64,000 nucleotides of DNA from a virus (lineage: Duplodnaviria; Heunggongvirae; Uroviricota; Caudoviricetes), in the IMG/VR virus record IMGVR_UViG_3300029742_000285, positions 1,475 through 65,474 of that record; one strand, 5' to 3'. This document shows positions 9,424-50,211 of this stretch, in pieces (position 1 is the stretch's first letter; each line of letters starts with the position of its first letter). Both the position numbers and the translations under genes were made by a program. The notes beneath the pieces were generated by a model. It was not told the origin of the DNA. It ran no database searches and was given only the letters and a program-made list of their open reading frames with translations.

Positions 9424-10500
9424 TTAGTAAGCCTTGATGCAGTACACAGCGTCCATACGCTCAAAGGACGGCAGGACGATTTCGGAGACGTAGATGTTGG
9501 TGTTGACAGGATGCACGGTCTGCTCGGTGGTAACAGCAACGCCAGTGTTCACAACGGAAACCTGTGCGTTGGAGATTCCGGCCATCAGGTCGGCTTCCTC
9601 AGGGGTGGCAACATAGTACATATTGCCCAGAGAGCCGGAAGGAGCCAGCACAACATAGCCATCAGGCAGATACTTCTCAGCAGCTGCAGTTTCCTCCGGC
9701 TTGTACATCTTGTCGTACAGATGAATGCGGATGCCGGAAGCGCTTTCGACAACGGAACGTGCTTCGGAATCAACCAGCACAGCGGTGGCGGTCTTCATAA
9801 CCGTCAGGAACCGGTTCTTGATTTCATCCGCAGCAATCATCTTGTGGAAAGTGTTGGTGTTCATGTAGGCATCGGTGATAATCTCACCAGTGTTTGCCAG
9901 CACGGTGTTTGCGGCAGTGGTCATCGTGGCGATGGGGGTTGCAGTAGTAGGAGCATCCCACTTCTCCTTGGTAGCCAGAGCCTTGTAATTGGACTGCTGC
10001 CAAGTGCCGTCAGGGTCGTAATCGTAGACGTAACTCACGCCGTTAGATTCGATGGAGATGCCGGGCTTGCCAGTCTTAGGAGCCAGAAGCTGCCACACCA
10101 TTCGCTCAGGCACAATGCGAGCACCGGTAATAAGCTGTGCGGTATCATCGTAGACACGATTGATAACGTCTGCCGCAAACTCCTGATTGGTAGCCAGAAC
10201 AGAGATAATCTTGCGGCGGTCTTCCTCGTCAATGTGAGTGCCCTCACGGAAGAACGGCATACTGGTCTCGGTCATCTTGATGCCCTGACGAGTACGGAAC
10301 GTAGCCTTAGTGTCAAACACGCTAGGCTTCAGCGAAACGCCAACGCCCTTGTGGCCACGCAGCCACTTCAGTTCCATGCTGACCTTCTTACGGGCGGGGA
10401 ACAGAGCATCAGAAGCATAGGGCTGCGCATTGGTCGGGTCATTCGTCCAGTAGGCGGCAATCGCAGCAGGGGAGAAGATTTCATTCAGATTCAGTGCCAT
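9424..10500 (-). CDS. Major capsid protein
   Basis: 358 aa downstream of the scaffold gene. RBS AAGGAGG upstream of ATG. Position and size typical. Confidence 0.7.
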   Translation of the reverse strand: MALNLNEIFSPAAIAAYWTNDPTNAQPYASDALFPARKKVSMELKWLRGHKGVGVSLKPSVFDTKATFRTRQGIKMTETSMPFFREGTHIDEEDRRKIISVLATNQEFAADVINRVYDDTAQLITGARIVPERMVWQLLAPKTGKPGISIESNGVSYVYDYDPDGTWQQSNYKALATKEKWDAPTTATPIATMTTAANTVLANTGEIITDAYMNTNTFHKMIAADEIKNRFLTVMKTATAVLVDSEARSVVESASGIRIHLYDKMYKPEETAAAEKYLPDGYVVLAPSGSLGNMYYVATPEEADLMAGISNAQVSVVNTGVAVTTEQTVHPVNTNIYVSEIVLPSFERMDAVYCIKAY

Positions 10501-10513
10501 AATTTAGTCCTCC

Positions 10514-10888
10514 TTACTCGCTCTTTGCGCCAACATCGGTACGGCAGAAAACGGCGGGAACAGCCTTTTTCAGAGCGGCAATATCGTTTGCAGAATAGTC
10601 AAAGCCAGACAGCTTTGCCTTGTCCACATCAATAACGCCCTGAATCAGCAGTGCGCCATTGGGGTTGACGGCAGGGTCAACAGTGTGCAGCAGAATGCCA
10701 ATGGCATCGGTAGCTGCATCAGCAGCACTGGTGCCAGTAGTGGCAGCAGCTTTTAGGCCAGTCTTTGCCATAGGATAGCCAGCCGGAACAGCATTGGTCT
10801 CCTTGACGGTAAAGGGAATGGCAACGTAGGTATCAGCAGCCAGAATAGTGCTTTCAGGAGCCGATACCGGAGTATTGGTGTACTTCAT
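10514..10888 (-). CDS. Hypothetical head-module protein
   Basis: 124-aa ORF between scaffold and capsid genes. Confidence 0.3.
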   Translation of the reverse strand: MKYTNTPVSAPESTILAADTYVAIPFTVKETNAVPAGYPMAKTGLKAAATTGTSAADAATDAIGILLHTVDPAVNPNGALLIQGVIDVDKAKLSGFDYSANDIAALKKAVPAVFCRTDVGAKSE

Positions 10889-10898
10889 GTTTTCCTCC

Positions 10899-11483
10899 TT
10901 AATGGAAAGCAGTCATTGCGTCACTCGATGCCTTGTTTGCGTCTGCACGCTCCTTCGCAAAGCGTTTAGCAAAGGCAACGCCTGCGCTATCTGCGCCGTC
11001 GCCATTGCCATCCGCACCCGGAGGTGTGGGCATATCCTTCAGCAGAGAAGCCTTGTATGCGGTGTCGTGGGCGGTCATAAATTCCGACTGGAACTTAAAC
11101 ACCTTGTCCATGTCACCGTCAGCCAGTGCAGATGCAGCCTTGTTGGCAAGTTCAGCGTCATAACCCTGTGCAACGAACTTCTCCCGGTAAGATGCAAGGG
11201 TCTTTTCCTTGACAAGGTTCTCCTTGTCGGCAGTCAGGGCTTCAATCTGCTTCTGCATCTCTGCCAGCTTGTCAGCCTGTTCCTGTGCAGCATTCTCGTC
11301 ATCGGTGCGCTTTGCCTTGAGCTGCTTCTTGTACTCAGCAGCTTCGCCGTTGGCTTTCGTCACGGCGTTACGCAGCTTCTCCACCTCTGCGCTAGGGTCT
11401 GCAACCTTTTCAAGCGCAGAAATGATTTCATCGGCGGTCATGCCCTCTTTGTAGGCATCACCAAGCAACACATTGAGTTTCAT
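10899..11483 (-). CDS. Capsid scaffolding protein
   Basis: Acidic, coiled-coil, Ala/Lys/Glu-rich. Internal start MKLNVLL at 11483 preceded by CAGGAGGAAAT. Lies between portal and capsid. Confidence 0.5.
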   Translation of the reverse strand: MKLNVLLGDAYKEGMTADEIISALEKVADPSAEVEKLRNAVTKANGEAAEYKKQLKAKRTDDENAAQEQADKLAEMQKQIEALTADKENLVKEKTLASYREKFVAQGYDAELANKAASALADGDMDKVFKFQSEFMTAHDTAYKASLLKDMPTPPGADGNGDGADSAGVAFAKRFAKERADANKASSDAMTAFH

Positions 11484-11594: not shown

Positions 11595-11840
11595 TTATTC
11601 CTTTGGGTAAATTCTTTTGTACGGCTCAATGCCGCTGTCCAAAATAGATTTTTCTCGCGCCGAATTCCGGTCAGGGTGCGTCCATTTGAATTTTCCACAT
11701 TTCGTGCAGATATACTCGCACTCCATTTCGCGTGGTTCGTCTCCGTTGATACCGTGCGTCCAATGCCAACGAGAAAGCGTATAGTCATGTTTGCAAAACA
11801 ACTGTTTCCAAAAATCACGCATTATCTTTTTCTCCATCCG
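11595..11840 (-). CDS. Small Cys/His-rich (zinc-finger-like) protein
   Basis: ORF overlapping the portal 3' end. CxxC and H-rich motifs. Confidence 0.25.
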   Translation of the reverse strand, partial: RMEKKIMRDFWKQLFCKHDYTLSRWHWTHGINGDEPREMECEYICTKCGKFKWTHPDRNSAREKSILDSGIEPYKRIYPKE

Positions 11841-13341
11841 CATTGTTTGGCTGTTTATCAACCGTGTTCCCGGCATTTGTGTCGGTGATGTCCTGTTTAG
11901 GCTGTTCCTGCGGTTTCGGCGCCTTTCCATCCTCTCCCAGCTTGCCAGCGGCAATCAGGAAGGGCTTGCTCATTTCGTAAGCAGCCTGCGGGTCAGGGAA
12001 CAGACCGGGCGTAGTGAACGCCAACTGCGGGTCAATGGTCTGCTGCAACATCTGTGCAAAAATCTGAACCTTACTCTGCTGGTTGTCATACTGACGGCGG
12101 GGCAGTTTGATGTTGATGTCACTTGCCATCAGCTTAGAACCAGCTGTATCACGCAGGATTTTCAGCATCACAGACAGGCTCTGTCGTTCAGCGTACTTGA
12201 ACATATTCTCGTACTGCTGCGCCCTTGCTTCGGTGTGATTCCAGCCGTTTCGGACAATGACTGCGCCCACGTTGTCGGACGTTGCGTTCTCGCTGCCAGT
12301 GGCACTGGGCATGGCAGTCAGACTGCGGTAAACGTTCAACATGGAATCAAGCAAGGTCTGGCTTTGCTGCTGGTCAAGCTCATTTGCAATCTGAGAAACC
12401 GAAGCGGTCAGACCAGAAGTGGATTTCAGGCACATTGCGCCAAGTTCCTTCACTTGGTCGAGAGCATCCTTGTCCACAAGGCAGTTGGTAAACACCATGA
12501 TGGACTGGATGAACTGTGCCACGCCGTCCAAACGGTTGCTTTCAAGGTCGTTGATGGCATCTAGCACAGGGATAGCAGGTTCAAACAGACCCATCCGCTC
12601 CGGGTTTAGCTTGTATTCGACCATCGGCAGCATTCCAAGGGAATGATATTTACCATTTCCTCCCTCGTTAACTACCTTGCCGTTGTCGATTTCAAAGTAC
12701 TGGTTCGGCGTATACACGCAAATCAGGTCATTCAGGTCATTCTGATAATTGCGTGGGATGTGCAGCACGTTGGCGATTGGCTTGTGCCCGATGCCGGAGT
12801 TGTAAATCACATACGCCATATCCGGGTCGGGAACGTCCACCAACAGGGGCGTTTCATCTGGGTAGTTGCCGTTGTACCCCTTGTCAGGAAGAACAATGCG
12901 GTATCCCTGCCCGCACTCCAACATCCACTGCCAGAGCCTCCGATCAAGTGCATCCTTGCCCTCATACTGCAAAGCATTGGACAGGCGGGCGATTTCCTCG
13001 CCGTCACCAGTTGCCGTTTCAGACCGCACATAGGAGCAAGGAGTGCCGCTCATGTAACCTGTGTAGAAGCCCACGCATTCATTGGCGTGGTTCTCCACAA
13101 TGCGGTTGGTGATTTCAGCGCGGTACTCTTTCGTGCGATGGAGGACAGGCTGACTGCCCAAGTAGTAGTTGTGCAAAAAGCGAATCTCGTTCTTGTTCAG
13201 CAGATGAATAGGTTCTGCCTTGCCCATAACCACTTTCAGCACGTTTGCCCGATTGATTTCCGTCTCCGGCGTTTCAATCGGTCTACGTCCGGTCAGCGGA
13301 TTATTCAAAAAGCCGTCAACGACTATCTGATACTCAGCCAT
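11815..13341 (-). CDS. Portal protein
   Basis: About 508 aa from MAEYQIVVDG, with RBS GGAAAGGAGGAAC upstream. Immediately downstream of TerL. Acidic C-terminal tail. Confidence 0.8.
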   Translation of the reverse strand: MAEYQIVVDGFLNNPLTGRRPIETPETEINRANVLKVVMGKAEPIHLLNKNEIRFLHNYYLGSQPVLHRTKEYRAEITNRIVENHANECVGFYTGYMSGTPCSYVRSETATGDGEEIARLSNALQYEGKDALDRRLWQWMLECGQGYRIVLPDKGYNGNYPDETPLLVDVPDPDMAYVIYNSGIGHKPIANVLHIPRNYQNDLNDLICVYTPNQYFEIDNGKVVNEGGNGKYHSLGMLPMVEYKLNPERMGLFEPAIPVLDAINDLESNRLDGVAQFIQSIMVFTNCLVDKDALDQVKELGAMCLKSTSGLTASVSQIANELDQQQSQTLLDSMLNVYRSLTAMPSATGSENATSDNVGAVIVRNGWNHTEARAQQYENMFKYAERQSLSVMLKILRDTAGSKLMASDINIKLPRRQYDNQQSKVQIFAQMLQQTIDPQLAFTTPGLFPDPQAAYEMSKPFLIAAGKLGEDGKAPKPQEQPKQDITDTNAGNTVDKQPNNADGEKDNA

Positions 13342-13433
13342 GCGTTCCTCCTTTCCGGCAAAATAAAAAGCGCAGCAAGACAAACCTGTTAAGGTCTATC
13401 TCACTGCGCTTACAACTGCGCTTCAAAAGCTAT

Positions 13434-13788: not shown

Positions 13789-13866
13789 TGGTGCTGCATA
13801 CTGGATTTGAACCAATGTATGCTCGGATATGAGCCGAGTGCTCTAACCATACTAAGCTAATGTAGC
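13789..13866 (-). tRNA. tRNA-Met (CAT anticodon), phage-encoded
   Basis: Manual fold of the reverse strand: acceptor GCTACAT/ATGCAGC (one A-C mismatch), D-arm GCTT..GAGC, anticodon arm CTCGG-CTCATAT-CCGAG, T-arm ATTGG-TTCAAAT-CCAGT, discriminator A, encoded CCA. Confidence 0.55.
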
Positions 13867-13993
13867 ATAAAAACCCGGCTTGATTGGTTAACCGCTGCTC
13901 TTTGCAATGCCATGCCTAAACATTACATTGAGAGCCGGGAATAGCGGTGGAGGTTTTGGAGAATAAGTCCATGCAAAGCTAGGTAGTTGGTTG

Positions 13994-14074
13994 TGCTGCG
14001 TAACGGAATCGAACCGTTGCTTGCCAGCCGTGGGGGAGACGGGCTGGCATTCCCCAAACAATTGGAAACGCAAC
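13994..14074 (-). ncRNA. Degenerate tRNA-like element (paralogous to the adjacent tRNA 3' half). A 7-9 bp hairpin replaces the anticodon arm.
   Basis: Perfect T-arm AACGG-TTCGATT-CCGTT and acceptor 3' strand ACGCAGCA, nearly identical to the tRNA-Met 3' end. The D and anticodon regions are non-canonical. No encoded CCA. Confidence 0.3.
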
Positions 14075-14289
14075 ATATAAAGCCCGGTGAAGGCGAAAGA
14101 GTGAGAAAACCTCCACCGGTGAAAGGAGGAATATGCTTGTTGACACGCACGCAAGTAAAAATGACAAAACCCCGCGTGTAAGCTATTCCTTTAAGGAAAG
14201 CTGCAAAACTTCCTGCGTACATTATAAGCCTTGTCAAGTGGTGAAATCAAATAAATAGACCCAGCGAACACAATATATTGTGTTTTTAA

Positions 14290-15957
14290 TCAAAAAGGTC
14301 TCTTGACAGGCTCGATTTTACTGATTCCGTTATACAATTCATCGGCAAGCTGTGCCAGACTGTCCGGTGCATCATCGTGCGGAACTTTGCCAAGCTGCGT
14401 GAACATCGTGACCTGTTCCATGAACGCTTTGTACTCTTTCGACTGGTGTTTTTCGTCAAGGAAATAGAACCGTTTGATATCCGGCGCATACTGGATGATT
14501 CTTGACAGCTTGCTTTGACCACTAGGCGCACGCTGGCTGCGAACAGAACAGTGATACCCTTGCTGCCGGAGCTGGCTGTCCACCACATCACAGTATTCAT
14601 CACCGCCGTTGTTGGCTTCGCCGCGCACCACGTTGATTTTGTGTTGGATGATTTTGCCCACGACTTCCGGTCTGGTCACGGTTTTGTCGCCGTTGTTGAA
14701 CACAAGGTCAGGGATGAACACGGCATCGCCGTACACATAAGCGATAGGACAGGCGGTAAAGTCACCGCCACCCCATGCAATATCCATGACCATGAGCTTG
14801 CGATCAGGCTCGCCATCAGGCAGAATGCCGTTGAAATACCGCAGTTCATCGGCAGGAAACAGCAAACCTTCACGCACATAGGGCTTGCCCATGTACTTTG
14901 CCCACCATGTTGCATCGTCAATACTGGCTTTCATATCGGCATAGTAGGCATCGTCAAAGCCAACGCCGTAGTCATAATTAAAGTTGCTGTGTCCGTTCTC
15001 GTCCACCGCAGGAATCACCCGGAATCTGTACTTCGGGTTGTCGGCATACTGGTTCTGGATGCGTCCCAAAGGGTCAAGCACGTTCCAGCGCGTACCGACC
15101 ATCAGCTCTAATGCGCCTTGCTTTTTACGGTCTTTCAGCTGATTCAGATAGGCATCGTACTTGTTGTTCAGACGTTCAACGTTCAGGCTTTCCTCCAAGT
15201 CCTCGATCAAGTCATCGCTGTACAAAACGCCACCCTCACCGATTTCAACAGCACCAGTCAGCGTGCCACCGATCGAGCGGCAAGTCAGGGTGGGGAAGCG
15301 TTTCTTTCGGTTCAGGTCAACGCTTTCATCCTTTGCGCTTTTGTCCACAAGCTGAACATCAGGGAAGATTTTGCCCCAGTTGTAGGTTACGGGGTCGGTG
15401 ATGATAGACAGCACTTCGCCGTAGAAACCGTTTGTCAGCTTGTCAGAGTGTCCGCTCATAACCGATGCAACGTCAGGGCGGTTGCCCATCAACCATGTAA
15501 TGAAAAAAATACATAGCGTCGATTTTCCGACGCGAGCGGGTAAGCTAACTCCCAAGAAGTCAATCCGCTTATAAAACAAGTCCTCCAGGTCATCTGCCAG
15601 CACTTTCAGAACCCTGCGTCTCGGCTGATAGAACTTCTTCTCCGGCGCACGATTCCATTCAAGGTAGATGCAATAGCTGTCAAACACGTCCTTTGCTTCA
15701 AACAGGTACGTCCGGCCGATAATGTCATAGACCTTCGCCACGTCCTCGCCTGTTTTCATCTTGCCCATCATGGCTGCACAGACAGAGCGCAGCTCACCAG
15801 AGTATTTGTAGGCATCGAACCGCTTGTCTTGCGGCAGAGCATCTCTCAGGTTCACCACCGCCTGAAACCAGTCCTCGTAGACCTGCGCTTCTGTCGGATT
15901 CTGCTTTGCATATGCTTTGATACTGTCAATGATGGCGATACACTGCTTTGGCTGCAT
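14290..15957 (-). CDS. terL: Terminase large subunit
   Basis: Walker A LPARVGKST. ATPase-plus-nuclease architecture of about 555 aa. Directly upstream of portal. Confidence 0.85.
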   Translation of the reverse strand: MQPKQCIAIIDSIKAYAKQNPTEAQVYEDWFQAVVNLRDALPQDKRFDAYKYSGELRSVCAAMMGKMKTGEDVAKVYDIIGRTYLFEAKDVFDSYCIYLEWNRAPEKKFYQPRRRVLKVLADDLEDLFYKRIDFLGVSLPARVGKSTLCIFFITWLMGNRPDVASVMSGHSDKLTNGFYGEVLSIITDPVTYNWGKIFPDVQLVDKSAKDESVDLNRKKRFPTLTCRSIGGTLTGAVEIGEGGVLYSDDLIEDLEESLNVERLNNKYDAYLNQLKDRKKQGALELMVGTRWNVLDPLGRIQNQYADNPKYRFRVIPAVDENGHSNFNYDYGVGFDDAYYADMKASIDDATWWAKYMGKPYVREGLLFPADELRYFNGILPDGEPDRKLMVMDIAWGGGDFTACPIAYVYGDAVFIPDLVFNNGDKTVTRPEVVGKIIQHKINVVRGEANNGGDEYCDVVDSQLRQQGYHCSVRSQRAPSGQSKLSRIIQYAPDIKRFYFLDEKHQSKEYKAFMEQVTMFTQLGKVPHDDAPDSLAQLADELYNGISKIEPVKRPF

Positions 15958-16090
15958 AAAAAAATAGGCACCCCCTACCTGAAAATGTAAAGAGTGCCTA
16001 CAACTGCACAAAAATCAAATATTCGGTTTTATAATGCTATTTTCGGAAAATTATTTGCTAAAATCCATCTTAATAAATGGGTTGCTCAGT

Positions 16091-16252
16091 TTATTTGACT
16101 TCTTCTGCAAGCTGGTTGAGCCTGCGTTTCAGCTCGTCCGCATCGTAGTACAAAGCGTCTGCGATGGCATTGAGAATATCGGGCTTGTCGGTGTAATCGC
16201 ACAGCGTTTCAATGAGTTTCAAACTCTGATCTGACAATTTTACGGTTTTCAT
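16091..16252 (-). CDS. Hypothetical 53-aa protein between RtcB and terminase
   Basis: ATG preceded by GAAAGGAAAACGAC. Below the ORF-track size cutoff. Confidence 0.3.
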   Translation of the reverse strand: MKTVKLSDQSLKLIETLCDYTDKPDILNAIADALYYDADELKRRLNQLAEEVK

Positions 16253-16270
16253 GTCGTTTTCCTTTCGGCT

Positions 16271-17503
16271 TTATTCTCCCGCTTTGAAATTGTAAATGGG
16301 CTTAATGTGTTTTACAATATCAACTGTTGTGGAAATTGTGTTGATAATTTCCTGCGCTGGCTTATATGCCATCGGGCATTCATCCAACGTGGATTCATCG
16401 GCTGACGTAGTATAAATTCCGTTCATCTGCTTTTGGTATTCCTCAACGCTGAATGCTTTTTTAGCCGCTGTTCTGCTATATAGTCTGCCAGCACCATGCG
16501 GAGCAGAGAAATTCCAATCAGGATTTCCCTTACCAACACAGATAAGGCTTCCGTCTCTCATATTAAGAGGAATAATCAGCTTCTCGCCCTCTCTAGCGGA
16601 TACGGAGCCTTTTCGGATAATATCATCCGATTCATCAATATAGTTGTGAACGGTTTCAAAGAAGGACGCATGGGTCAGCATAGAATTGATTCCAACGCCG
16701 TCTAAAATGGTATGCATGATTCTTGCTCTGTTCATCCTCGCAAAAGCCTGACAAATTCGCATATCATTAAGGTAGGAATCACGTTCTTCGCCTTCAAGAT
16801 AGCAAAGCTCATTCGGAATATTAGGGAACTGAACATCCAATTCTTTGATTTTTTGCGAGATTTCCTGTTCACGGCCTTGTTCTTTCAGTTCCGCAATCAC
16901 GCGTTCCGTAGCTTCTTTTCTTTTGTTCTTTCCTTTGATATTTGAGATAGCTACGTTTTGATGATACTCTGCGACTTGCTTTCCGAGATTTCGGCTTCCA
17001 GTATGAATAACAAGATACTGGTTTTTTTCTTCATCTTCGTCCAGCTCGATAAAATGATTGCCCCCACCCAAAGTGCCCATGCTGCGAAGAATCCAGTCAA
17101 CATTATGTAGACTATCTTTGCAGTCAAGCTGGCTAAGGAAAGAATCTGACATTTTCTGCGATTCGTGAACATTCATCCCAGCCGGAACTCGTTCTCTGAT
17201 TACTTTATCTAACTTTTTCGGGTCGATGTGTTCAATACCGAGTTCAGCGACAAGCATCCCGCAGCCAATGTCCACGCCGACAATATTCGGAATGACTTTC
17301 TTGCCCAAGTCTGCCGTAAACCCAATTACGCACCCGGAACCAGCATGAACGTCTGGCATAATGCGAATTTTGCAGCCATCAACAAAGCTCTGATTGCAAA
17401 GCGTCAAAATCTGCTCAGACGCTTTGTCTTCAATATTGTCCGTGAACACCTTTGCGGACGCATATTTTCCATCAATCGTTTTCAATGTATTCTCCTTTCT
17501 CAT
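16271..17503 (-). CDS. rtcB: RNA-splicing ligase RtcB (3'-phosphate/5'-hydroxyl RNA ligase)
   Basis: Signature motifs MPDVHAGSGCVIGF, GGGNHFIEL and APHGAGR. About 410 aa. Confidence 0.85.
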   Translation of the reverse strand: MRKENTLKTIDGKYASAKVFTDNIEDKASEQILTLCNQSFVDGCKIRIMPDVHAGSGCVIGFTADLGKKVIPNIVGVDIGCGMLVAELGIEHIDPKKLDKVIRERVPAGMNVHESQKMSDSFLSQLDCKDSLHNVDWILRSMGTLGGGNHFIELDEDEEKNQYLVIHTGSRNLGKQVAEYHQNVAISNIKGKNKRKEATERVIAELKEQGREQEISQKIKELDVQFPNIPNELCYLEGEERDSYLNDMRICQAFARMNRARIMHTILDGVGINSMLTHASFFETVHNYIDESDDIIRKGSVSAREGEKLIIPLNMRDGSLICVGKGNPDWNFSAPHGAGRLYSRTAAKKAFSVEEYQKQMNGIYTTSADESTLDECPMAYKPAQEIINTISTTVDIVKHIKPIYNFKAGE

Positions 17504-17531
17504 TCGGTTTTATTCTAGGTTGCGAACACTT

Positions 17532-18089
17532 TCACCTGTTCTGTTCAGCAATCCGATACCATGTCTGGCGGGTCACGCCAAGCTGCTTGGCAGCATCCGT
17601 GACCGTAAGAATGCGTTTCTCCACCTGTTCATGGAGAACGTCAAAGAGGTTTCGGTCATACTCGGTGGGCTTGCGACCTTTATAAACGCCTTTCTGCTTT
17701 GCCACTTCGATGCCCTCTTGCTGGCGGTCAAGCATATTCTGCCGCTCGAACTCGTTGATAGCCGCAATCATCGTGAGCATCAGTTTACCGGTGGGAGTGC
17801 CTGTATCTAGGTTTTCTTTATCACTTGCAAGGTGCACGCCGTTAGCTTGCAGCGTTTCGACCATTTCAAGCAAATCCTTTGTGCTACGGGCAAGGCGGCT
17901 GAAATCGTGGATAAACACGGTATCGCCCGGCTGAACTGATTTAAGCATCTTCTGCAACTCTGGTCTATCCATATTCTTGCCAGAGACCTTCTCGATAAAC
18001 CAACGGTCAATGTTATGCCGCTTCAACGCTTCTACCTGTCGTGCTTCATTCTGTTCGACAGTAGATACGCGAACATACGCTACGTTCAT
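17532..18089 (-). CDS. Small serine recombinase (resolvase/invertase family)
   Basis: N-terminal YVRVSTVEQ catalytic-serine motif, C-terminal HTH. 185 aa, too small for a large serine integrase. Confidence 0.8.
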   Translation of the reverse strand: MNVAYVRVSTVEQNEARQVEALKRHNIDRWFIEKVSGKNMDRPELQKMLKSVQPGDTVFIHDFSRLARSTKDLLEMVETLQANGVHLASDKENLDTGTPTGKLMLTMIAAINEFERQNMLDRQQEGIEVAKQKGVYKGRKPTEYDRNLFDVLHEQVEKRILTVTDAAKQLGVTRQTWYRIAEQNR

Positions 18090-18397
18090 TCAGAATCACT
18101 GTCCTTTTCAATTACAGTGCCTTCAACAAGATATTTCCCAGCTCCAACAGTTCCAACATCAGGCTCAATAACAATGCGATAATTCAATGCTTTCAAGAAC
18201 CTAAACAAAGTAGAAAGTTTCATGTTATCATCTTGAAGTCTGCGGTAAACAGCCTGATTGGAATTGTAATCAACGCTATCTGCCAACTGAACCATGCTTA
18301 CGCGCTGGTTCTTCATAATGTCTTTTACAATTTCGGATCCATTCGTTGATATTTTTACAGGTTTCTTCTTTTCCGCTTCATTTTTTCGCATCGTCAT
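18086..18397 (-). CDS. HTH (XRE-like) DNA-binding protein, first gene of the RtcB operon
   Basis: 103 aa. Segment VSMVQLADSVDYNSNQAVYRRLQ fits a helix-turn-helix. Stop overlaps the recombinase start (ATGA). Confidence 0.4.
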   Translation of the reverse strand: MTMRKNEAEKKKPVKISTNGSEIVKDIMKNQRVSMVQLADSVDYNSNQAVYRRLQDDNMKLSTLFRFLKALNYRIVIEPDVGTVGAGKYLVEGTVIEKDSDSE

Positions 18398-18422
18398 TTT
18401 CCTGTCCTCTCTTTCTGCTACA

Positions 18423-18451
18423 ATTATAAACGCTTCCGTTCACATTGTCAA
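18423..18451 (-). promoter_or_regulatory. Consensus sigma70 promoter (TTGACA-17-TATAAT). The operator TGAACGGAAGCGTT sits in its spacer.
   Basis: Reverse strand reads TTGACAatgtgaacggaagcgttTATAAT, 25-30 nt upstream of the 103-aa ORF start. Confidence 0.55.
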
Positions 18452-18683: not shown

Positions 18684-18712
18684 TTGACAACTATATACCA
18701 AGCGTCTATAAT
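18684..18712 (+). promoter_or_regulatory. Consensus sigma70 promoter (TTGACA-17-TATAAT), divergent from the RtcB operon promoter
   Basis: TTGACAactatataccaagcgtcTATAAT. Drives the plus-strand cassette starting at 18925. Confidence 0.5.
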
Positions 18713-18924
18713 CTAAGACAGCAGAACACACGATGAATCAGCCAGCAACGGTAGATTTATCCTTTGTGGCATAAAAAATAGGCCATCAGCACGACCGACC
18801 AAAGTAGCACTGATGACCTATTCCACCACAAAACAGAAGCTACGCAACCAAGGGCGCAGTCTCGGTTTCTGTCAATTATTATAGCAGAAGCAGACCGCTT
18901 CTGCAATAGAAAGGAGCAAAAAAC

Positions 18925-19089
18925 ATGAACTTTCCCACGACAACCGAAGAATTTCTAAAAACCCTCGCACACGGCAAAGAGCCGACCAACGAGGACAGAG
19001 AGTACGCCGAAGCACTGGGTAAGCTGTCCGAACTGAACTATCGGGCAGGGTACGAAGCGGGATCAGCCAATAAGAACGACAAAATCTGA
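18925..19089 (+). CDS. Hypothetical 54-aa protein
   Basis: ATG with RBS GAAAGGAGCAAAAAAC. First ORF downstream of the consensus promoter. Confidence 0.3.
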   Translation: MNFPTTTEEFLKTLAHGKEPTNEDREYAEALGKLSELNYRAGYEAGSANKNDKI

Positions 19090-19185
19090 TGTCAACACTA
19101 GCGAACACAATATCTAGTGTATTTTTGATTGACATTCAGATATTTTGCAGTTACACTTATTGCACAGCAAAACGAAAGGGGGTGA

Positions 19186-19368
19186 ATGTGTATGAGCAGT
19201 CCTTACGCAGAGCGTTACGGTCACACCGTTACCATCAGCGTGACGGAGCGACAGTTTGCAAGCTTGCAGGAATACTGCATCAAGAACCGGGTCTCCATTT
19301 CTGCTGCGTTCCGTGAAGCGTTCTTTACGCTGCATCCGATGGATTCCACCAATGAAAACGAAAAATGA
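19186..19368 (+). CDS. Small putative DNA-binding (RHH-like) protein
   Basis: 60 aa, RBS AAAGGGGGTG upstream. Confidence 0.3.
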   Translation: MCMSSPYAERYGHTVTISVTERQFASLQEYCIKNRVSISAAFREAFFTLHPMDSTNENEK

Positions 19369-19487
19369 TACGCTCGCTAAAGTTTGCCGACCACAGCGAA
19401 CGTATCATATCAACCCTGAGAGAAGCATTCTCTCGCCGTTATTATAGCAGAAAATTGCTTCTCTCACAAGTGAAAAGGAGCTTTTTA

Positions 19488-20282
19488 ATGCAACTTTCTT
19501 TGTCTGAGAACATCAAAATCTTCAACAACGCCGAGTTTGGCGAAATCCGTGTCATGCTCATTGACGATGACCCTTGGTTTGTTGGCAAGGACATTGCCGC
19601 AGCACTTGGGTACGTCAACACGAAAGACGCTCTTGCAAAGCACGTTGACGAGCAAGATAAGCGTCAGGGAGATGGGGTAGCGTTTTGCGACCCCATGGGC
19701 AGAGAACAGCATCCGACCATCATCAACGAATCCGGCCTATACAGTCTGATTTTCAGCAGCAAGCTGGAAAGCGCACAGCGGTTCAAGCACTGGGTCACTC
19801 ACGAAGTTCTGCCGTCCATCCGCAAGCATGGGATGTACATGACCGACAACCTGTTGGAGACGGCTATTGCCAACCCGGACTTCGTGATCGGGCTGATTCA
19901 GAACATGAAAGCTGAAAAGGAAAAGAACGCAGCGTTGCAGACGCAGAACAAGCAACTCTGTGAGAAGAACGAGGAGATGCAGCCTAAGGCGGACTATTTT
20001 GACGACCTTGTGGCATGGAACTTGGCTGTTTGTTTCCGTGGCACGGCAAAGGAACTGCGTATTCCTGAACGCAAGTTCATCCAATCGCTTATTGAAGATG
20101 GTTACATCTACCGTGACAAGAACAGAAATCTCCTGCCGAAAGCTGGCAAAGGTGATGAACTGTTCGTTGTTAAGGAATTTCTCAATCGGAAGAATAAGCA
20201 TGGCGGTTTGCAGACCAGAGTAACGCCGAAAGGCCGTGAGACCTTCCGTCTGCTCTATGCAAGCATTCGTAAAAGCGTATAA
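19488..20282 (+). CDS. Phage antirepressor (Bro-N domain plus KilAC-like C-terminal domain)
   Basis: Bro-N motif FNNAEFGEIRVMLIDDDPWFVGKDIAAALGY...HWVTHEVLPSIRKHGMY. RBS AAAAGGAG. Confidence 0.65.
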   Translation: MQLSLSENIKIFNNAEFGEIRVMLIDDDPWFVGKDIAAALGYVNTKDALAKHVDEQDKRQGDGVAFCDPMGREQHPTIINESGLYSLIFSSKLESAQRFKHWVTHEVLPSIRKHGMYMTDNLLETAIANPDFVIGLIQNMKAEKEKNAALQTQNKQLCEKNEEMQPKADYFDDLVAWNLAVCFRGTAKELRIPERKFIQSLIEDGYIYRDKNRNLLPKAGKGDELFVVKEFLNRKNKHGGLQTRVTPKGRETFRLLYASIRKSV

Positions 20283-21767: not shown

Positions 21768-21820
21768 TTGACAAAATGAACGGAAACGTTTATACTATAG
21801 ACAGTGAACGGAAACGTTCA
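21768..21820 (+). promoter_or_regulatory. Sigma70 promoter (TTGACA-17-TATACT). Two copies of the operator TGAACGGAAACGTT(CA) lie in the spacer and at +1.
   Basis: TTGACAaaatgaacggaaacgttTATACTatagacagtgaacggaaacgttca. Second operator is the palindrome TGAACG-gaaa-CGTTCA. Confidence 0.5.
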
Positions 21821-21851
21821 TACACCACCACAAAACAGGAGGACAAAAACC

Positions 21852-23235: not shown

Positions 23236-23241
23236 TTCCTA

Positions 23242-23270
23242 CCCCGTCCGCGTGGCGGGGCTTTTCTTTT
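23242..23270 (+). terminator. Rho-independent terminator
   Basis: CCCCGTCCGCGTGGCGGGG hairpin followed by CTTTTCTTTT. Confidence 0.5.
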
Positions 23271-23865
23271 GCCTTGCATCTGCTGAGGGTGCAGGGCTTT
23301 TATTTTGTCCTGCTGCAATACAGCCACGCGCAAGCGTTTACAGCGCGTTTTGTGTCGTCCATGTAAATTATACCGCCAACGCTGCAAAGCATCATACAGT
23401 GCTTTACTGCGGCTTTTCCGGCGCTTGTGCCCGCTCAGCCGCCCACGATACCAGACCGACACAAGCGGCTATAATACCGCCTGCACCACGCTGGAGCGCA
23501 TCACAGCGCCGCAACGCATCCAGCGCATACCAGATAACACCGCCACGCCAGACGCTGTACAGACCAGCGCAACCGCCCTATTATAATAAGGTATATAAGG
23601 GTGCGTCCCTGTTATGGATTCATGCCAGCCCGGCGGGGTCAGCTACTGCCGTCTGTGGATTGCTGGCAAGTGCTGGCAGCGTGTCAGCAGTACAGACCCG
23701 GCGCACCCGCTGAGGGGTCAGCGTCTCCACCTGTACAGGGTCAGCCCGGCAGCTTGCAATTTAGCACCGGCTGGCGCCCTCCACCCGGCGGGGCAGTCGG
23801 GCAGTGGCGCGGCGGGCGGCGCGGAACCATTGGCGGCTCTCGCCGCAGCTCTTTTCGGGCTTTCG

Positions 23866-24146
23866 CCCGATAGCCAATAGAGGTCAGCAATAGTCGTAAC
23901 AGATTCTGGAATAGTCATAGCCAATAGTCGTAGTTTCTCCAATAAAATAGTCGTAAAATAGTCGTAAAGTCGTCAGACGACTAGCTTTTGAAAGTCCTAT
24001 ATATAGTATATTAACGAACAGTTTGCTAATAGTCGCAAAGCAATAACAGCAGCACTTTCTTGCGAATCATCGTCAAATAGTCATGTATTTTTTGTGCGAA
24101 ATAGTCGTTCGTCTTTTAGAGAAAGAGAGGCGCGATAGTCGCTAAG
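23866..24146. repeat. Iteron array: at least 9 direct copies of (A)ATAGTCG(T/C)(A), plus the palindrome GTCGTCAGACGAC
   Basis: Copies at 23888, 23909, 23922, 23945, 23958, 24027, 24076, 24098 and 24134. Further copies at 24447 and 24869. Confidence 0.5.
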
Positions 24147-24159
24147 TCATCCGACCACT

Positions 24160-24900
24160 CCAAAATCACCTCTCGTTCCAATTTCGCATAATTTATTCCT
24201 ACACCAGTTATATCTGTTTCGTATAATAACCGTACTTATTATAGTATACAGATATAGTTACTCCCGATAATCACGGATTATTTCGTATAATAGCTTGTAC
24301 CATCCGATTCTGTTCGTTCCTGCTCGTTTTAATTCCCAGTAAAGCGCTATGGTATTTTAGCTAATCTATAGCATTCTGCTATGAATAGTATATGCAACAT
24401 TTCTACATATTCAACTGACAACAAAATTACGTCAATTCTCCATTTGAAATAGTCGTAGACCATCCACTAGTCCGAGCCCCACGCCAGCTCTCGTCTACGG
24501 TCTGCTTTGCTGTCTAACGGTATAGCTTTGGAGATAGAGGGTTGTAGGGGGAAAGAACCTTTGCAAGACATTTGGTTGTCGTTTCAAGTTGTCGCAGTTG
24601 TCGCACCATTTTGGCGTGGGGACATGAAATAGCTTGTCTATTTCATGGAAGGGAGATAGAGAGATAGATAGATAATAATAGGGGGTTGTAGGGGGGAAGA
24701 AGAAGGAAGGAAGAGAGGAAGATTGGTATGCAAACGCATCATGTGAATCCATTCGCATTCAAACGCATCTCGCTGACAGTCGCTCTCAAACGCTACCCAA
24801 TCAAGACGGCTCCTGTTCAAAAACCAACTTTGCCGTTTTCTCCCGATAAATAACAGGCAAAAAAGCACGGAATAGTCGCAGAGGGTAGTTTTACCACCCG
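24160..24900. repeat. AT-rich origin-like region with direct repeats, a 10-bp perfect IR hairpin and flanking GAGATAGA...GGTTGTAGGGGGAAGAA direct repeats
   Basis: Direct repeats TTTCGTATAATA at about 24218 and 24282. IR CATGAAATAG/CTATTTCATG at 24623-24647. GTTGTCGC x3 at about 24577-24610. Confidence 0.4.
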
Positions 24901-24952
24901 ATAACATTCCATGCTTTCCGATACGTTTGTTGATTGGGGATTTTAGCGGAGA

Positions 24953-30374: not shown

Positions 30375-30578
30375 TCATTCCTTTCTCACGCGCTTTCCTC
30401 TGTTGAATCGCCTGATCACTCGCTTATACTCTGCATAGCACTCCGGGCAAAGGTCGCCTGTGTCTCTGCGCCACGCCCAGTCCTTGAAGTATTCGTCAGG
30501 GTTCATCATCCTACCGCCCAGAACTGCTCCACAGCGGTCGCATACTCGCTTGTGGTAGATTCCTCTGTCAGTTTGCAT
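30375..30578 (-). CDS. Zinc-ribbon small protein
   Basis: CDRCG...CPEC motifs. Confidence 0.3.
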   Translation of the reverse strand: MQTDRGIYHKRVCDRCGAVLGGRMMNPDEYFKDWAWRRDTGDLCPECYAEYKRVIRRFNRGKRVRKE

Positions 30579-31360
30579 TAGTCGTCCTCCCCCACGTCCT
30601 TAAACAGAATTTCTTTGTAGGCTTTCCAGTCTTTGATTTTGCACAGAATGTCTGTGCCGGGTACGGTCTTTTTCAGCCCATCCATCTGCCAGACGTTCCA
30701 TGAGATAGTATCTGCGATGCAATCAAGAAAAATGGGCATAAAGCCAATTTCCAGCTTTTCAGCATCAAACCGATACCTAAAATTTTCGATCAGTGTCAGG
30801 AACAGATTGCACCTTGCCAGCAAGAGATTGTCTCCCTGCCACTCATAGCCGTATGTCGATGCATAGGCATTGATTGCCCAGCACATCCACACATCGTAGT
30901 CATGGAACTGCTCTGCCAGAACATTTAGCTTCCTATCCAGCAGACCGATTCTGTCCGGCACAGCAATCATCTTCCCTGTTGTTGTATCATATCGACTTGT
31001 CAGGAACGGTGCTTCTCCACAGGTGACTTCAAGACAAGTCTTGTTGATGTACTCCTTCCAGTCTTCGCCCTTCAGGTCGTTTTCGGCAACGTCTGCCATC
31101 TTCTTGCAAACCCAAGTCGGCGTGAACACCTCTGCTTTCTTGCTGGTTCGCTTCTTCTGGTCTGCAAGCCGTTTCTGCACACGAGGGACAAGCTGAATTT
31201 TGTCCAACTGTTCCAGTGTGATTTCATCTGCAAAGTCAACGCCCAGTTCAGGTGGCGGGTCTGTCGCCCAGATGATGTTCTTGCCTGTCGTGTGGTCTTG
31301 CAATAGAACAGGCAGGAACGTGCGTAGGCATGGGTCGGAGAAGTCAATCAAAGTTACCAT
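30578..31360 (-). CDS. Hypothetical protein with weak gamma-class N6-adenine MTase-like N-terminal motifs (EVFTP, xxxCGxxxFL) but no NPPY
   Basis: AEVFTPTWVCKKM and LEVTCGEAPFL resemble the HsdM pre-motif and motif I. No catalytic (D/N)PP(Y/F) motif follows. Confidence 0.25.
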   Translation of the reverse strand: MVTLIDFSDPCLRTFLPVLLQDHTTGKNIIWATDPPPELGVDFADEITLEQLDKIQLVPRVQKRLADQKKRTSKKAEVFTPTWVCKKMADVAENDLKGEDWKEYINKTCLEVTCGEAPFLTSRYDTTTGKMIAVPDRIGLLDRKLNVLAEQFHDYDVWMCWAINAYASTYGYEWQGDNLLLARCNLFLTLIENFRYRFDAEKLEIGFMPIFLDCIADTISWNVWQMDGLKKTVPGTDILCKIKDWKAYKEILFKDVGEDD

Positions 31361-31569
31361 TTGCCAGCCCTCACCATGATTTTGTTTTTTTCTTTCAGCC
31401 AGTCCTTGACGCAATGAAAGCAATGCTCACGGTTTTGGCAACGCTCCGGGTCACGATGTTTGATAAGTTCGCAGATGCCCGGCGTAAAGTTTTCTGTAAT
31501 ATCTTCGTCCGTCATAGAGCGGATAAAATCGCCATTAGTCATGTTTTTCCTCTTTATGTTCCCCATCAA
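31354..31569 (-). CDS. Hypothetical Cys/His-containing small protein
   Basis: 71-aa ORF. Confidence 0.25.
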   Translation of the reverse strand: MMGNIKRKNMTNGDFIRSMTDEDITENFTPGICELIKHRDPERCQNREHCFHCVKDWLKEKNKIMVRAGKW

Positions 31570-41696: not shown

Positions 41697-42290
41697 ATGG
41701 ATGAATATTTAGTAAGAACAGCCAAAGCATTGGAGATAGCTCGAATGCGTTCCGGCTTGAGCCAGCAGAAATTGGCGGCAAAAATTGGCGTGAATCGTGG
41801 CACGATAGCAAATTGGGAGCAAGGTCTGGCAGCCATTTCCCTTCCGATGGCTATGCGCTGGTTCACCTGCTGCGGCGTATCGGCGGATCGATACATGGAC
41901 GCTTGCATTCACCCAGGGCTGCTGGAACACCTGGAAGAAGACCTTTCCGATCTGGAGAAACGGCGGATTCTCATAGATGCTATGATGGAGTGCTCCTCCT
42001 ATGAGATAGACGCCTTGTTGTACATCCGGTACGGAGATCACGGCTCAGACCACATCGGCGTATTGACGGAGATTCTGGCAAACCTCCACACGCCGTTGAA
42101 GGACAGGGTCGCTGTCTGCCGGATGGCATCCGGTAACTATGAGATGGCACAGGCTACCGGAACAGACCCAGACCCGAACGGTACCGCCCCAAAGATGGAA
42201 ATTCTCTATCAGGCACAGGACGCTGGAACAGAAGCAGCCATGAAGTCCAACGATTCCTATACCGTTAATCCAAATAATATAACTGGTTGA
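41697..42290 (+). CDS. XRE-family HTH regulator with C-terminal extension (second repressor-like protein)
   Basis: N-terminal HTH (LSQQKLAAKIGVNRGTIANWEQG). 197 aa. Confidence 0.45.
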   Translation: MDEYLVRTAKALEIARMRSGLSQQKLAAKIGVNRGTIANWEQGLAAISLPMAMRWFTCCGVSADRYMDACIHPGLLEHLEEDLSDLEKRRILIDAMMECSSYEIDALLYIRYGDHGSDHIGVLTEILANLHTPLKDRVAVCRMASGNYEMAQATGTDPDPNGTAPKMEILYQAQDAGTEAAMKSNDSYTVNPNNITG

Positions 42291-42335
42291 TTGTCGAATT
42301 ATCGCAGTTTTTGAAGAACATTCTGTCCACATTCA

Positions 42336-42526
42336 TCCACTTTTTGTACACCTATCGGGCAAAATTGCCTTGTCATTTCGTCCCCCATAGGCTGTAAATC
42401 GACAACATTCGTGCGGAATAAATAACGAATTAGCGTTAATATACTGTTTGTGATTGAGTGGCTTGTCAATCCGTCCCCCATCGTGCAGATTAGGTATACC
42501 TTTCCATCCACTTTTTGTACACCTAT
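42336..42526. repeat. Origin-associated repeats: two identical 21-bp direct repeats TCCACTTTTTGTACACCTATC, two inverted RepA iterons (GTCAWTYCGTCCCCCAT) and one DnaA-box-like site CTATCCACA
   Basis: Direct repeats at 42336-42356 and 42506-42526. Inverted iterons at about 42362-42380 and 42463-42481. DnaA-like box at 42523-42531. Confidence 0.5.
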
Positions 42527-42723
42527 CCACAGTCCGTCCACGTTTGGTATAGCTAATGGAAAGTCACTTCATCACCGGTACAGTCCTATTCAGCAAGCGA
42601 CAACTTGAGTTATCAACAAACTGGAATGGAAAAATAAAGAAATTGTTGAAAATTATCGTCATCGACTATTTAACGATGATATTTAACCTCTTGTTTATTT
42701 CTTGTTTAATATATAATATGTAG

Positions 42724-42835
42724 ACGGGGGACGAAATGACAAAGCATGGGGGACGTTTTGACAAGTCATGGGGGACAAAATGACGAGGATATGGGGGACA
42801 AAAAGACAAGTCACGGGGGACGAAAACGGTTGACA
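42724..42835 (+). repeat. Five tandem 22-bp iterons A(T/C)GGGGGAC(R)AAATGACAAGYC abutting the repA promoter
   Basis: Copies at 42724, 42746, 42768, 42791 and 42813. Preceded by an AT-rich stretch at 42600-42720. Confidence 0.6.
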
Positions 42836-42858
42836 CGTCCCCCTACTTGTGATATACT
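42830..42858 (+). promoter_or_regulatory. Sigma70 promoter TTGACA-17-TATACT for repA. Overlaps the last iteron.
   Basis: TTGACAcgtccccctacttgtgaTATACT. Confidence 0.5.
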
Positions 42859-42887
42859 GTTTTCAGACCATTAAAGGAAGTGAGCAG

Positions 42888-43964
42888 ATGCCAAAAATAT
42901 CAGACAACAACCTTGTCGAGAAAAGCAAATCCCTTGTTTGGGCGAAGTTCAGGGACTACACCGCAGGAGAACTTCGGTTGTTGGAGGTTTACCTATCAAG
43001 AATAAATCCGAGAGACCCTAACAGTAGCCGTGTGGAGTTCACTTTGGCAGAGTATAGAGACCTGCTCGGACTGAAAAGCCTTGACGCTAGGAGGATTGAG
43101 CCGCAGATCAAGCACTTTTTAGGCAATACGGTTTCGATTCCTATTGACAAGGAGAAAGGAACATTTGAAAGCTTTGTCCTATTCACGAGGGCAAAACTGG
43201 ACTATGTACCAGAAACAAGGTCTTACGTTGTGGCAATCACCTGCAACCCAGACCTTCGTTCTATCTTCTTTGACATCGCAGAAAGCGGCTATGTCCGGTA
43301 TCGGCTACGTTACACGTCACGGATGAAGTCGCAGTACAGCATCTTGCTCTATTCGATTCTTCGGGACTGGATGAACATGGACAGCAAACCGCATGAAATC
43401 AGTCTGAAGAAGTTGAGGGAACAGCTCGGTGCAACGGAAGCCAGCTACGATGTTTACAAGAACCTTCGCAAGCGAGTGCTTGACGTTGCGGTGGACGAAA
43501 TCAATGCTGTGTCTGACATTGTTGTGACTTACGAGCCAGTCCTTGTAGCGCGAAAAGCTGTGGCAGTCAAGTTTAAGCCAAAAATTAAAGCGTCTGAGAC
43601 GTTGATTGAAGCACAGGCAAGCGAAGTGTTGACCGAACCTCAAAAAGTCGTCAAAAAGCCCCGTAGAAGCGGATACGATGATTTTGACTGGTCTATGTGT
43701 GACGAACTAGAAAAGCAGGACTGCATTGATGTGGCGAAGGTAGTTGAGAAGTGGATGAAGAAAGAGCATCCTGAAATCAAGCTGCCAAGACGCAGAGAAG
43801 CGGTTTACGACACGGTGAAGGCGGCGTATAAGGACATTTTGTCTTTGGATAGGTCTCCGTTCCCGGACAGACCTGTTGGCTATCTGATTAGAAGCGTGGA
43901 CAAGGCGGGTATCGTAGACAGGTATATGCCAGCGTTCTATTCCATCGAAGCGTTGCAAAAGTAG
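42888..43964 (+). CDS. repA: Plasmid-type replication initiator (Rep_3 / RepA-like)
   Basis: N-terminal SLVWAKFRDYTAGELRLLEVYLSRINP motif typical of Rep_3 initiators. Iterons directly upstream. RBS AAAGGAAGTGAGCAG ATG. Confidence 0.65.
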   Translation: MPKISDNNLVEKSKSLVWAKFRDYTAGELRLLEVYLSRINPRDPNSSRVEFTLAEYRDLLGLKSLDARRIEPQIKHFLGNTVSIPIDKEKGTFESFVLFTRAKLDYVPETRSYVVAITCNPDLRSIFFDIAESGYVRYRLRYTSRMKSQYSILLYSILRDWMNMDSKPHEISLKKLREQLGATEASYDVYKNLRKRVLDVAVDEINAVSDIVVTYEPVLVARKAVAVKFKPKIKASETLIEAQASEVLTEPQKVVKKPRRSGYDDFDWSMCDELEKQDCIDVAKVVEKWMKKEHPEIKLPRRREAVYDTVKAAYKDILSLDRSPFPDRPVGYLIRSVDKAGIVDRYMPAFYSIEALQK

Positions 43965-44000
43965 TCAGATTATTCAGATAAAGTAGAAAGGAGAAAGAGT

Positions 44001-44282: not shown

Positions 44283-44299
44283 AAAGAAAGAGTGATAAA

Positions 44300-46281: not shown

Positions 46282-46298
46282 GTTGGAGGATTTATTGG

Positions 46299-48299: not shown

Positions 48300-48312
48300 A
48301 ATCTATACCTCC

Positions 48313-50208: not shown

Positions 50209-50211
50209 CGC

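Follow-up and report, generated by a model that had tools for sequence, protein, structure and literature searches.

RtcB-family ligases seal RNA breaks that carry 2′,3′-cyclic-phosphate and 5′-OH ends, and the family extends to phages (PHROG 1075), among them cluster K1 mycobacteriophages (for example, gp88 of Anaya) and some jumbo phages, in which the ligase shares the genome with a tRNA gene, as it does here. A shield formed by phage RtcB and phage tRNAs against cleavage of tRNA by the host was suggested for the K1 mycobacteriophages in 2011 (PMC3203893) and taken up again for jumbo phages (PMC7824862); the counter-defence idea is not new, and in our searches of the literature we found no experiment that tests what a phage-encoded RtcB does. 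Here we describe an RtcB locus in a 64-kb stretch of the IMG/VR virus record IMGVR_UViG_3300029742_000285 (the window, whose coordinates are used throughout), in which all genes of the locus lie on the minus strand and a small helix-turn-helix (HTH) regulator, a serine recombinase, RtcB and a 53-amino-acid open reading frame (orf53) precede the gene for the terminase large subunit (TerL; Table 1). Combining the window with a comparative set of about 160 related gut-phage loci, we hold it moderately probable that the locus is an autoregulated HTH operon that carries a recombinase and, as optional counter-defence cargo, RtcB. This estimate is a joint one for the whole of our best explanation, in which the locus would also be the accessory arm, early or regulatory, of a gut phage of about 57 kb with plasmid hallmarks, and RtcB would be catalytically intact and use GTP and Mn to join 2′,3′-cyclic-phosphate or 3′-phosphate ends to 5′-OH ends.

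The role that we propose, resealing of RNA cut by host nucleases, is the one suggested for phage RtcB before (PMC3203893, PMC7824862); what differs is that RtcB is here an optional, bounded cassette in an HTH-controlled operon beside TerL of a plasmid-hallmark gut phage, and that comparative data show its assortment to be independent of tRNA. The way of working would resemble that of T4 Pnk and Rnl1 on PrrC-cleaved tRNA-Lys, in which phage enzymes restore a tRNA cut in its anticodon loop, although RtcB joins 3′-phosphate or 2′,3′-cyclic-phosphate to 5′-OH ends with GTP and replaces the pair of kinase/phosphatase and ATP-dependent ligase. The rtcBA operon of Escherichia coli and Salmonella (regulated by RtcR) and the PrfH-coupled RtcB2 share the enzyme family and the RNA-repair chemistry, whereas the neighbours here are the recombinase, orf53 and TerL, and no RtcA, RtcR, archease or PrfH gene adjoins the ligase. 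In its control, the locus has a strong promoter, an inverted-repeat operator, a small HTH autorepressor candidate within the operon and variable cargo in common with operons in which Aca proteins control anti-CRISPR (Acr) genes; however, the HTH gene here comes first rather than last, a second promoter lies 3.3 kb away, the regulator is present regardless of the cargo and is not assigned to any Aca family, and no known Acr protein is encoded in the operon. Lambdoid immunity regions (that is, heteroimmune cI/cro with OL and OR) are comparable in their allelic HTH proteins with matching operators and in their two strong, outward-facing promoters a few kilobases apart, and Cro at PR is likewise the first gene of one operon. 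In contrast to those regions, a single small XRE-like protein is found here, its operators lie in promoter spacers, and it is coupled to a serine recombinase directly upstream of packaging genes.

An HTH regulator and its allele-matched operators

The promoter of the HTH gene (P_HTH) matches the sigma-70 consensus at 12 of 12 positions, a match that by our own estimate is expected about 0.004 times per 12 kb, and the relatives keep both of its hexamers in front of all HTH alleles although the spacer between them differs. Within the spacer in the window lies the operator TGAACGGAAGCGTT (18429–18442), a copy with one mismatch occupies the spacer of a TTGACA-17-TATACT promoter (21777–21790), and another such copy lies at 21805–21818; no further copy with up to two mismatches occurs anywhere in the 64 kb. 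The original prediction, made from the sequence alone, had called a TTGACA-17-TATAAT promoter on the minus strand in front of four genes and TerL, an XRE-like HTH protein, a small serine recombinase and a 53-amino-acid reading frame among these genes, and a spacer operator shared with a promoter 3.3 kb away, and each of these calls is borne out, with the XRE type of the HTH protein as a probable assignment.

Table 1 Features of the RtcB locus and its surroundings (window coordinates)
Feature	Position	Strand	Evidence or remark
Portal	11815..13383	-	Pfam SPP1_portal 1.4e-57
tRNA, anticodon CAT	13789..13866	-	ARAGORN; Rfam RF00005 58.7 bits
Conserved tRNA-shaped RNA	13993..14074	-	Fold z-score -3.1; covariance model 98.8 bits
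TerL	14290..16011	-	PHROGs terminase large subunit 3.6e-55
Terminator-like hairpin, 15 bp + T7 run	15957..16001 (stem-run 16001-15964)	-	Abuts TerL ATG
Right junction core ATAAAACCGAAT	16021..16032	-	Opens invariant block of about 75 nt upstream of TerL
orf53, 53-amino-acid reading frame	16091..16252	-	Independent cassette of about 0.24 kb
Degenerate junction core ATAAAGCCGAAA, RtcB/orf53 boundary	16263..16274	-	Includes RtcB stop codon
RtcB 3′-phosphate/5′-OH RNA ligase (predicted), reading frame of 410 amino acids	16271..17503	-	PF01139 3e-62, 211.6 bits; phrog_1075 6e-134
Left junction core ATAAAACCGAAT of RtcB cassette	17502..17513	-	One of two exact copies in the window
Small serine recombinase, resolvase/invertase family, 185 amino acids	17532..18089	-	Pfam Resolvase 1.4e-42; phrog_125 (DNA invertase) 2.5e-61
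Probable XRE/Cro-C1-type HTH regulator, 103 amino acids, allele A	18086..18397	-	phrog_8522 HTH 2e-5
P_HTH, sigma-70 consensus TTGACA-17-TATAAT	18423..18451	-	-35 18451-18446, -10 18428-18423
Candidate operator dyad type A, 16 bp, TGAACG-gaag-CGTTTA	18427..18442	-	Occupies promoter spacer, overlaps -10 by 2 nt
Distal divergent promoter TTGACA-17-TATACT + two type-A operators (21777-21792, 21805-21820)	21768..21820	+	Hexamers span 21768-21796

The HTH sequence of the window itself (allele A) has no Pfam match, allelic relatives match HTH_37 (1e-8), HTH_3 and HTH_26 in Pfam, and a profile of the family matches HipB weakly (E=0.013). Upstream of the recombinase, at least 11 HTH alleles are found among the relatives, strongly divergent yet alignable, and each of the 11 is paired with a dyad of its own at the same position of the P_HTH spacer (for example, TGAACGgaagCGTTTA for allele A, TACGCTagaaAGCGTA for D, AACACAagaaTGTGTT for E, ACGTATaaATACGT for F and CCATGaaaaCATGG for K); in types A, B, C, D, E and F, that dyad is repeated two to three times at a divergent promoter about 3.3–3.6 kb off. 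Because the operator co-varies with the HTH protein across 11 alleles, six of them at two promoters, binding of the regulator to the dyad is strongly supported and autoregulation well supported by sequence comparison, and such a pairing of HTH and dyad is what characterizes an immunity-type specificity module. We infer that the HTH protein, presumably as a dimer, would bind both the 16-bp spacer dyad of P_HTH and the two copies at the distal promoter, and that it would act on both as a repressor (that is, negative autoregulation combined with co-regulation). The set of at least 11 HTH alleles with their operators provides a computationally defined and probably orthogonal series of repressor–operator pairs from phages of gut Clostridia.

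The operator copies could instead be sites of the adjacent resolvase/invertase-type recombinase, such that the 3.36-kb segment between them would be invertible, and the copies at 18425–18443 and 21804–21822 are indeed mutually inverted. However, the dyad follows the HTH allele and not the recombinase allele, as four different operators accompany recombinase type R1, and R1 as well as R2 is found with operator D; the sites lie exactly in promoter spacers, in tandem at the distal promoter, as is typical of operators; and ant, an anti-repressor gene within the segment, points the same way relative to RtcB wherever it was found. Since the dyad tracks the HTH protein and orientation polymorphism was not seen in the compared loci, we rejected this candidate, the chance of which we regard as close to negligible.

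Between the two promoters with HTH operators, a second perfect promoter (12 of 12 positions; 18684–18712, plus strand) drives a 54-amino-acid reading frame, a ribbon-helix-helix (RHH) protein (19186–19368) and the Ant anti-repressor (19365–20282). This arrangement (18684–20282) resembles arc-ant of the P22 immI region.

The original prediction had also compared the HTH protein with an Aca-like autorepressor of the RtcB operon; the co-variation of operator and allele agrees with the autorepressor part, whereas the dedication to RtcB does not hold. The same HTH types occur in relatives that lack RtcB, and the HTH gene, P_HTH and the recombinase gene are found in every member of the family, with RtcB or without it; because of this presence without RtcB and the second promoter with its operators, the HTH protein is a genome-level regulator that is not dedicated to RtcB.

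RtcB as an optional cassette in a variable slot

The Pfam score of RtcB (211.6 bits for PF01139) compares with a cutoff of 27 and covers the full length, and the PHROGs label is "tRNA splicing ligase". The motifs MPDVHAG, VGVDIGCG, GGGNHFIEL, IHTGSRNLG, ETVHNY and SAPHGAGR can be read and align to the Thermus thermophilus RtcB-family protein TTHA1785 (PDB 2epg), as expected from the original call of an RtcB with signature motifs; the metal-binding and catalytic residues (that is, Asp and Cys of GVDIGCG, Asn-His of GGNHF, His of HTGSR, a further His and the nucleophilic His of HGAGR) are all present. The length of 410 amino acids given in that call is correct for the reading frame, but the true start is probably the TTG at 17485, which has a GGAG ribosome-binding site upstream and yields the 404-amino-acid form that dominates the protein database. 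Among 62 RtcB alleles there are no stop codons, and the ratio of nonsynonymous to synonymous divergence (dN/dS) is 0.045 at a dS of 0.39, from which we take the gene to be old and constrained; as judged from these substitution rates, it is under strong purifying selection, with some function maintained.

Purifying selection acts on a gene that most of the related phages do without. In 72 evaluable loci sampled through TerL, RtcB is carried by 23 (32%), and its presence is unlinked to orf53, orf62, the variant of the tRNA-shaped RNA described below, the HTH type and the recombinase type. In IMG/VR, this RtcB is found on at least 181 contigs (94–100% amino-acid identity) and this TerL on at least 595, the contigs of the phage family being mostly 55–60 kb long; in GenBank, two short unannotated human-faecal phage contigs without RtcB (MT839348 and MT839459, about 91% identical) are related, nothing beyond these two was found there, and a close copy of the phage is absent from the GTDB representative genomes. 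An abundant gut-phage family with hundreds of genomes that are near-isogenic apart from a bounded RtcB cassette amounts to a natural experiment, in which RtcB carriage could be correlated with the defence repertoires of hosts. This polymorphism and the set of HTH–operator pairs are additions that leave current concepts unchanged.

From the stop codon of the recombinase to the invariant block of 75 nt before TerL, the slot measures between 72 nt and about 3 kb among the relatives. The 12-nt core ATAAAACCGAAT occurs in exactly two copies in the window and in a single copy in relatives with an empty slot, and in 116 unique slots such cores bracket a unit of 1,240 nt (RtcB, 61 instances) and a unit of 240–250 nt (orf53, 37 instances). 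RtcB is therefore a discrete, precisely bounded and optional cassette of 1.24 kb. The smaller cassette, orf53, for which profile searches returned no family match, is found with and without RtcB and in both orders relative to it (L047, L048 and L068); a role as an archease-like partner of RtcB was rejected, as its distribution is independent of RtcB (p=0.2) and it matches no family. The alternative cargo consists of small reading frames, with a YjcQ domain as the sole Pfam match, and PADLOC, which holds models of defence systems only, matched none of RtcB, orf53 and the HTH protein; with YjcQ as the sole recognised cargo domain and PADLOC blank on RtcB and orf53, the slot was rejected as a known defence or anti-defence island.

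In the mechanism that we propose, P_HTH would drive a single transcript that carries the HTH gene, the coupled recombinase and then this hypervariable cargo slot, occupied here by the 1.24-kb RtcB cassette and the 0.24-kb orf53 cassette, each bounded by ATAAAACCGAAT, and that would end at an invariant terminator-like hairpin ahead of TerL. This hairpin appears from its sequence to close the four-gene unit before the TerL ATG. RtcB would then reseal tRNA or rRNA that is cut during infection by metal-independent RNases, for which anticodon nucleases, HEPN or Cas13-type effectors and ribotoxins are candidates, and counter-defence by RNA repair is a plausible role.

Ahead of the TerL ATG, a block of 75 nt (15957–16032, minus strand) is near-invariant in about 150 loci, and everything upstream of it varies. 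In this block, the 3′ arm of the hairpin carries the only Shine-Dalgarno-like run, GGGGG, and the block may regulate late-gene expression.

Several observations weigh against this explanation as a whole. The related loci share kinship and come mostly from one metagenome project, such that the counts are not independent; 68% of the relatives manage without RtcB; and of the 11 HTH types, 6 showed co-variation at the distal promoter, within the available flanks. The hairpin is invariant across the relatives, which leaves its role as a terminator without support from covariation. The ligase scores below every NCBIfam RtcB equivalog cutoff (for example, 126 versus 407 for PRK09588 and 102 versus 272 for TIGR03073), so substrate preference is not transferable from E. 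coli RtcB1 or PrfH-coupled RtcB2. The best cellular RtcB, from Clostridia metagenome-assembled genomes (MAGs) among the GTDB representatives, is 58% identical, and because of this modest identity and because no host is assigned, we do not name a cognate RNA-cleaving defence.

The position of the cassettes next to a recombinase suggests another view of the slot, namely that RtcB and orf53 are mobile cassettes inserted and excised at the core by the recombinase, in the manner of an integron-like platform based on a serine recombinase. The cassettes each have their own ribosome-binding site and ATAAAACCGAAT at the end, and they occur singly, together and in either order, always directly downstream of the small serine recombinase, the C-terminal DNA-binding domain of which shows little or no change in the few relatives read (L001 and L152), whereas the catalytic domains differ. 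Yet just two types of cassette bear the core, the core is constant across recombinases that are 28–50% identical, and the pattern is also accounted for by ordinary recombination at an intergenic linker that the cassettes share. Nor is this an integron by the usual definition, the recombinase being of the serine type and the cassettes being bounded by a 12-nt direct repeat rather than attC. We consider such mobility very unlikely.

tRNA-Met and a conserved tRNA-shaped RNA

The tRNA-Met(CAT) of the original prediction is confirmed by ARAGORN and Rfam (elongator Met or Ile2, not of the initiator type), and the tRNA-like element had been described as a remnant, which it is not. The acceptor stem of the element is invariant and its D, T and 'anticodon' arms covary, the last being of 8–10 bp with a loop that is usually CUCCCCC, and the element is present with and without RtcB, as 63 sequence variants in 144 loci. 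In an alignment of 25 sequences, 90.7% of cells are paired compared with 31–50% in slid controls, and 10 pairs have changed on both sides (41 cells), which was reached by none of 500 shuffles; such compensatory changes mark the element as a conserved cloverleaf RNA. It is called by neither ARAGORN nor Rfam, and a covariance model of it cross-matches true tRNAs at 23–30 bits. An identity as YrlA, Y RNA or another Rfam family was rejected, there being no match at E values up to 10. In L061, the 3′ end of the tRNA-shaped RNA is fused to the 3′ flank of tRNA-Met, and because of a fusion like this one some relatives have no tRNA-Met.

If RtcB, tRNA-Met and the tRNA-shaped element formed one counter-defence module of tRNA repair and replacement under a dedicated Aca-like autorepressor, as originally predicted and as published in its outline for the K1 mycobacteriophages (PMC3203893), the elements should travel together. 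They do lie within 4.7 kb on one strand, and the link between HTH protein and operator is supported. However, tRNA-Met is present in 17 of 23 RtcB-positive and 37 of 47 RtcB-negative loci (p=0.76), and RtcB is associated neither with the variant of the tRNA-shaped RNA nor with the HTH allele. The hairpin and the entire TerL gene lie between the operon and the tRNA genes, tRNA-Met being located in the late spacer between TerL and portal; and the HTH gene, promoter and recombinase are found in all RtcB-lacking relatives, with a second promoter predicted to be under the same HTH protein. A candidate for a separate promoter of tRNA-Met and the tRNA-shaped RNA lies at 14250–14221. On this evidence tRNA-Met and the tRNA-shaped RNA are independent of the RtcB operon, and a single module is, in our assessment, rather improbable.

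A distant phage, L164 (Acetatifactor MAG contig CANQNT010000045.1, 1–10400; TerL 37%, portal 31% and RtcB 58% identical), speaks for the association, as its RtcB also lies beside tRNAs and a tRNA-Met follows TerL. The order there is tRNA-Gln, tRNA-Met, tRNA-Glu, RtcB, a 195-amino-acid reading frame, TerL, tRNA-Met and portal, and the 195-amino-acid product has a ligase-type KxDG motif and a weak, sub-threshold match to RLIG1; the arrangement lends weak support to an RNA-repair theme in the wider lineage. Against this, tRNAs lie near just 11 of 80 distant RtcB homologues, and enrichment of tRNAs around such homologues was rejected, as this number is not above background by our rough estimate.

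RtcB might alternatively ligate or circularize RNAs of the phage itself that end in 2′,3′-cyclic phosphate through the action of ribozymes or nucleases, for which the tRNA-shaped RNA, conserved and 2.2 kb away, and the region of a RAGATH-5 motif, 5.4 kb away, could be sources; the chemistry of RtcB suits the ends left by self-cleaving ribozymes. The tRNA-shaped RNA, however, occurs with the same spread of variants in RtcB-negative relatives; a RAGATH-5-like sequence is present in 9 of the 28 RtcB-positive loci that cover the region and also in RtcB-negative loci; and Rfam finds no family of self-cleaving ribozymes in the window. With no co-occurrence and no ribozyme family, RAGATH-5 or a self-cleaving ribozyme was rejected as the source of a substrate, and ligation of the phage's own RNAs, likewise rejected from the comparison of loci, has, in our view, a slim chance of being the function. 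The RAGATH-5 motif itself (Rfam RF02685; 22940–22990, plus strand; 60.5 bits versus a cutoff of 50) lies downstream of the small genes of the distal promoter and is found in some relatives only, not linked to RtcB.

In about 15 relatives (L004, at 9980–10987, L012, L018, L056, L075 and others), TerL is interrupted by an in-frame intein of about 1 kb with a LAGLIDADG motif, located in the Walker A motif (GK|ALSDDT...THN|ST; around position 15520 of the window, whose own TerL has no intein); L164 has an intein at the same site. Splicing of this insert that depends on RtcB was rejected, as the insert is an in-frame intein without an Rfam intron match and is missing from the window. Both GenBank relatives (L001 and L002) have N-terminal deletions in TerL relative to window positions 15585–15715, one of 132 nt in frame and one of 80 nt that shifts the frame; the two begin at the same coordinate and may be an assembly artefact.

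Plasmid hallmarks and other features of the window

The window encodes DnaB, a Rep_3 plasmid initiator, ParA, a 197-amino-acid CI-like protein with an HTH_3 domain and a NikA-like protein, and because the Rep_3 gene shares contigs with TerL and RtcB, we regard the phage as having plasmid hallmarks. The recombinase has a Resolvase domain (residues 3–135), in which the motif YVRVSTVEQ can be read directly, and a C-terminal HTH_17 domain (161–184), and its ATG overlaps the stop codon of the HTH gene (ATGA), by which it is translationally coupled to that gene. In the PDB it matches Tn3 and gamma-delta resolvases, Sin and a DNA invertase (4m6f), all at 1e-23 to 1e-25, with about the same degree of similarity to Tn3 resolvase, Sin and 4m6f; no res site was identified, and no inversion polymorphism was observed among the compared loci. 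The plasmid hallmarks make a resolvase for a plasmid-like replicon its most likely role, and it is solely on these hallmarks that the assignment rests.

The same hallmarks are the starting point of a further reading, lysogenic conversion, in which the HTH and recombinase genes would form a maintenance operon of a plasmid-prophage (that is, a repressor and a multimer resolvase) and RtcB would be a moron expressed in the carrier cell, where it would shield host translation from ribotoxins, contact-dependent tRNases, antibiotics or the host's own toxins. A plasmid state would need a resolvase, the terminator-like hairpin would insulate the operon from late genes, and cellular RtcB systems repair tRNA and rRNA damaged under stress (PMC7790460, PMC9304027); expression in the carrier state is thus compatible with the resolvase and the insulating hairpin. 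The 12-of-12 promoter, however, is in our judgement more typical of early lytic or anti-defence genes than of maintenance genes, a maintenance repressor is better sought in the CI-like protein at 41.7 kb, beside Rep_3 and ParA, and the RHH–Ant pair lies between the two promoters with HTH operators. The consensus promoters and the separate CI-like protein favour early expression, as our operon model with optional RtcB cargo would have it, and we consider lysogenic conversion unlikely.

The plasmid-type maintenance module occupies 41697–47180 (plus strand) and consists of the HTH_3 protein, Rep_3, ParA, a NikA/RHH-like protein and an AAA ATPase that matches the defence protein IetA (PADLOC 1.8e-54). 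Downstream, from about 48300 to 64000, G+C content rises from about 45% to 56–62%, and a second, different set of siphovirus structural genes is found, with Sipho_Gp37, a capsid protein and a putative tape-measure protein of 1,003 amino acids that has no Pfam match; the window probably joins two unrelated records or elements near 48.3–48.7 kb. A stretch of about 1.7 kb (23240–24950), which separates the short distal operon from the replication genes, is without a convincing reading frame or an Rfam match and could be a replication origin or an undescribed RNA. Among the replication genes lies a homologue of type II DNA methyltransferases (30578–31423, minus strand; PADLOC MTase_II 4.5e-68), which could protect against restriction.

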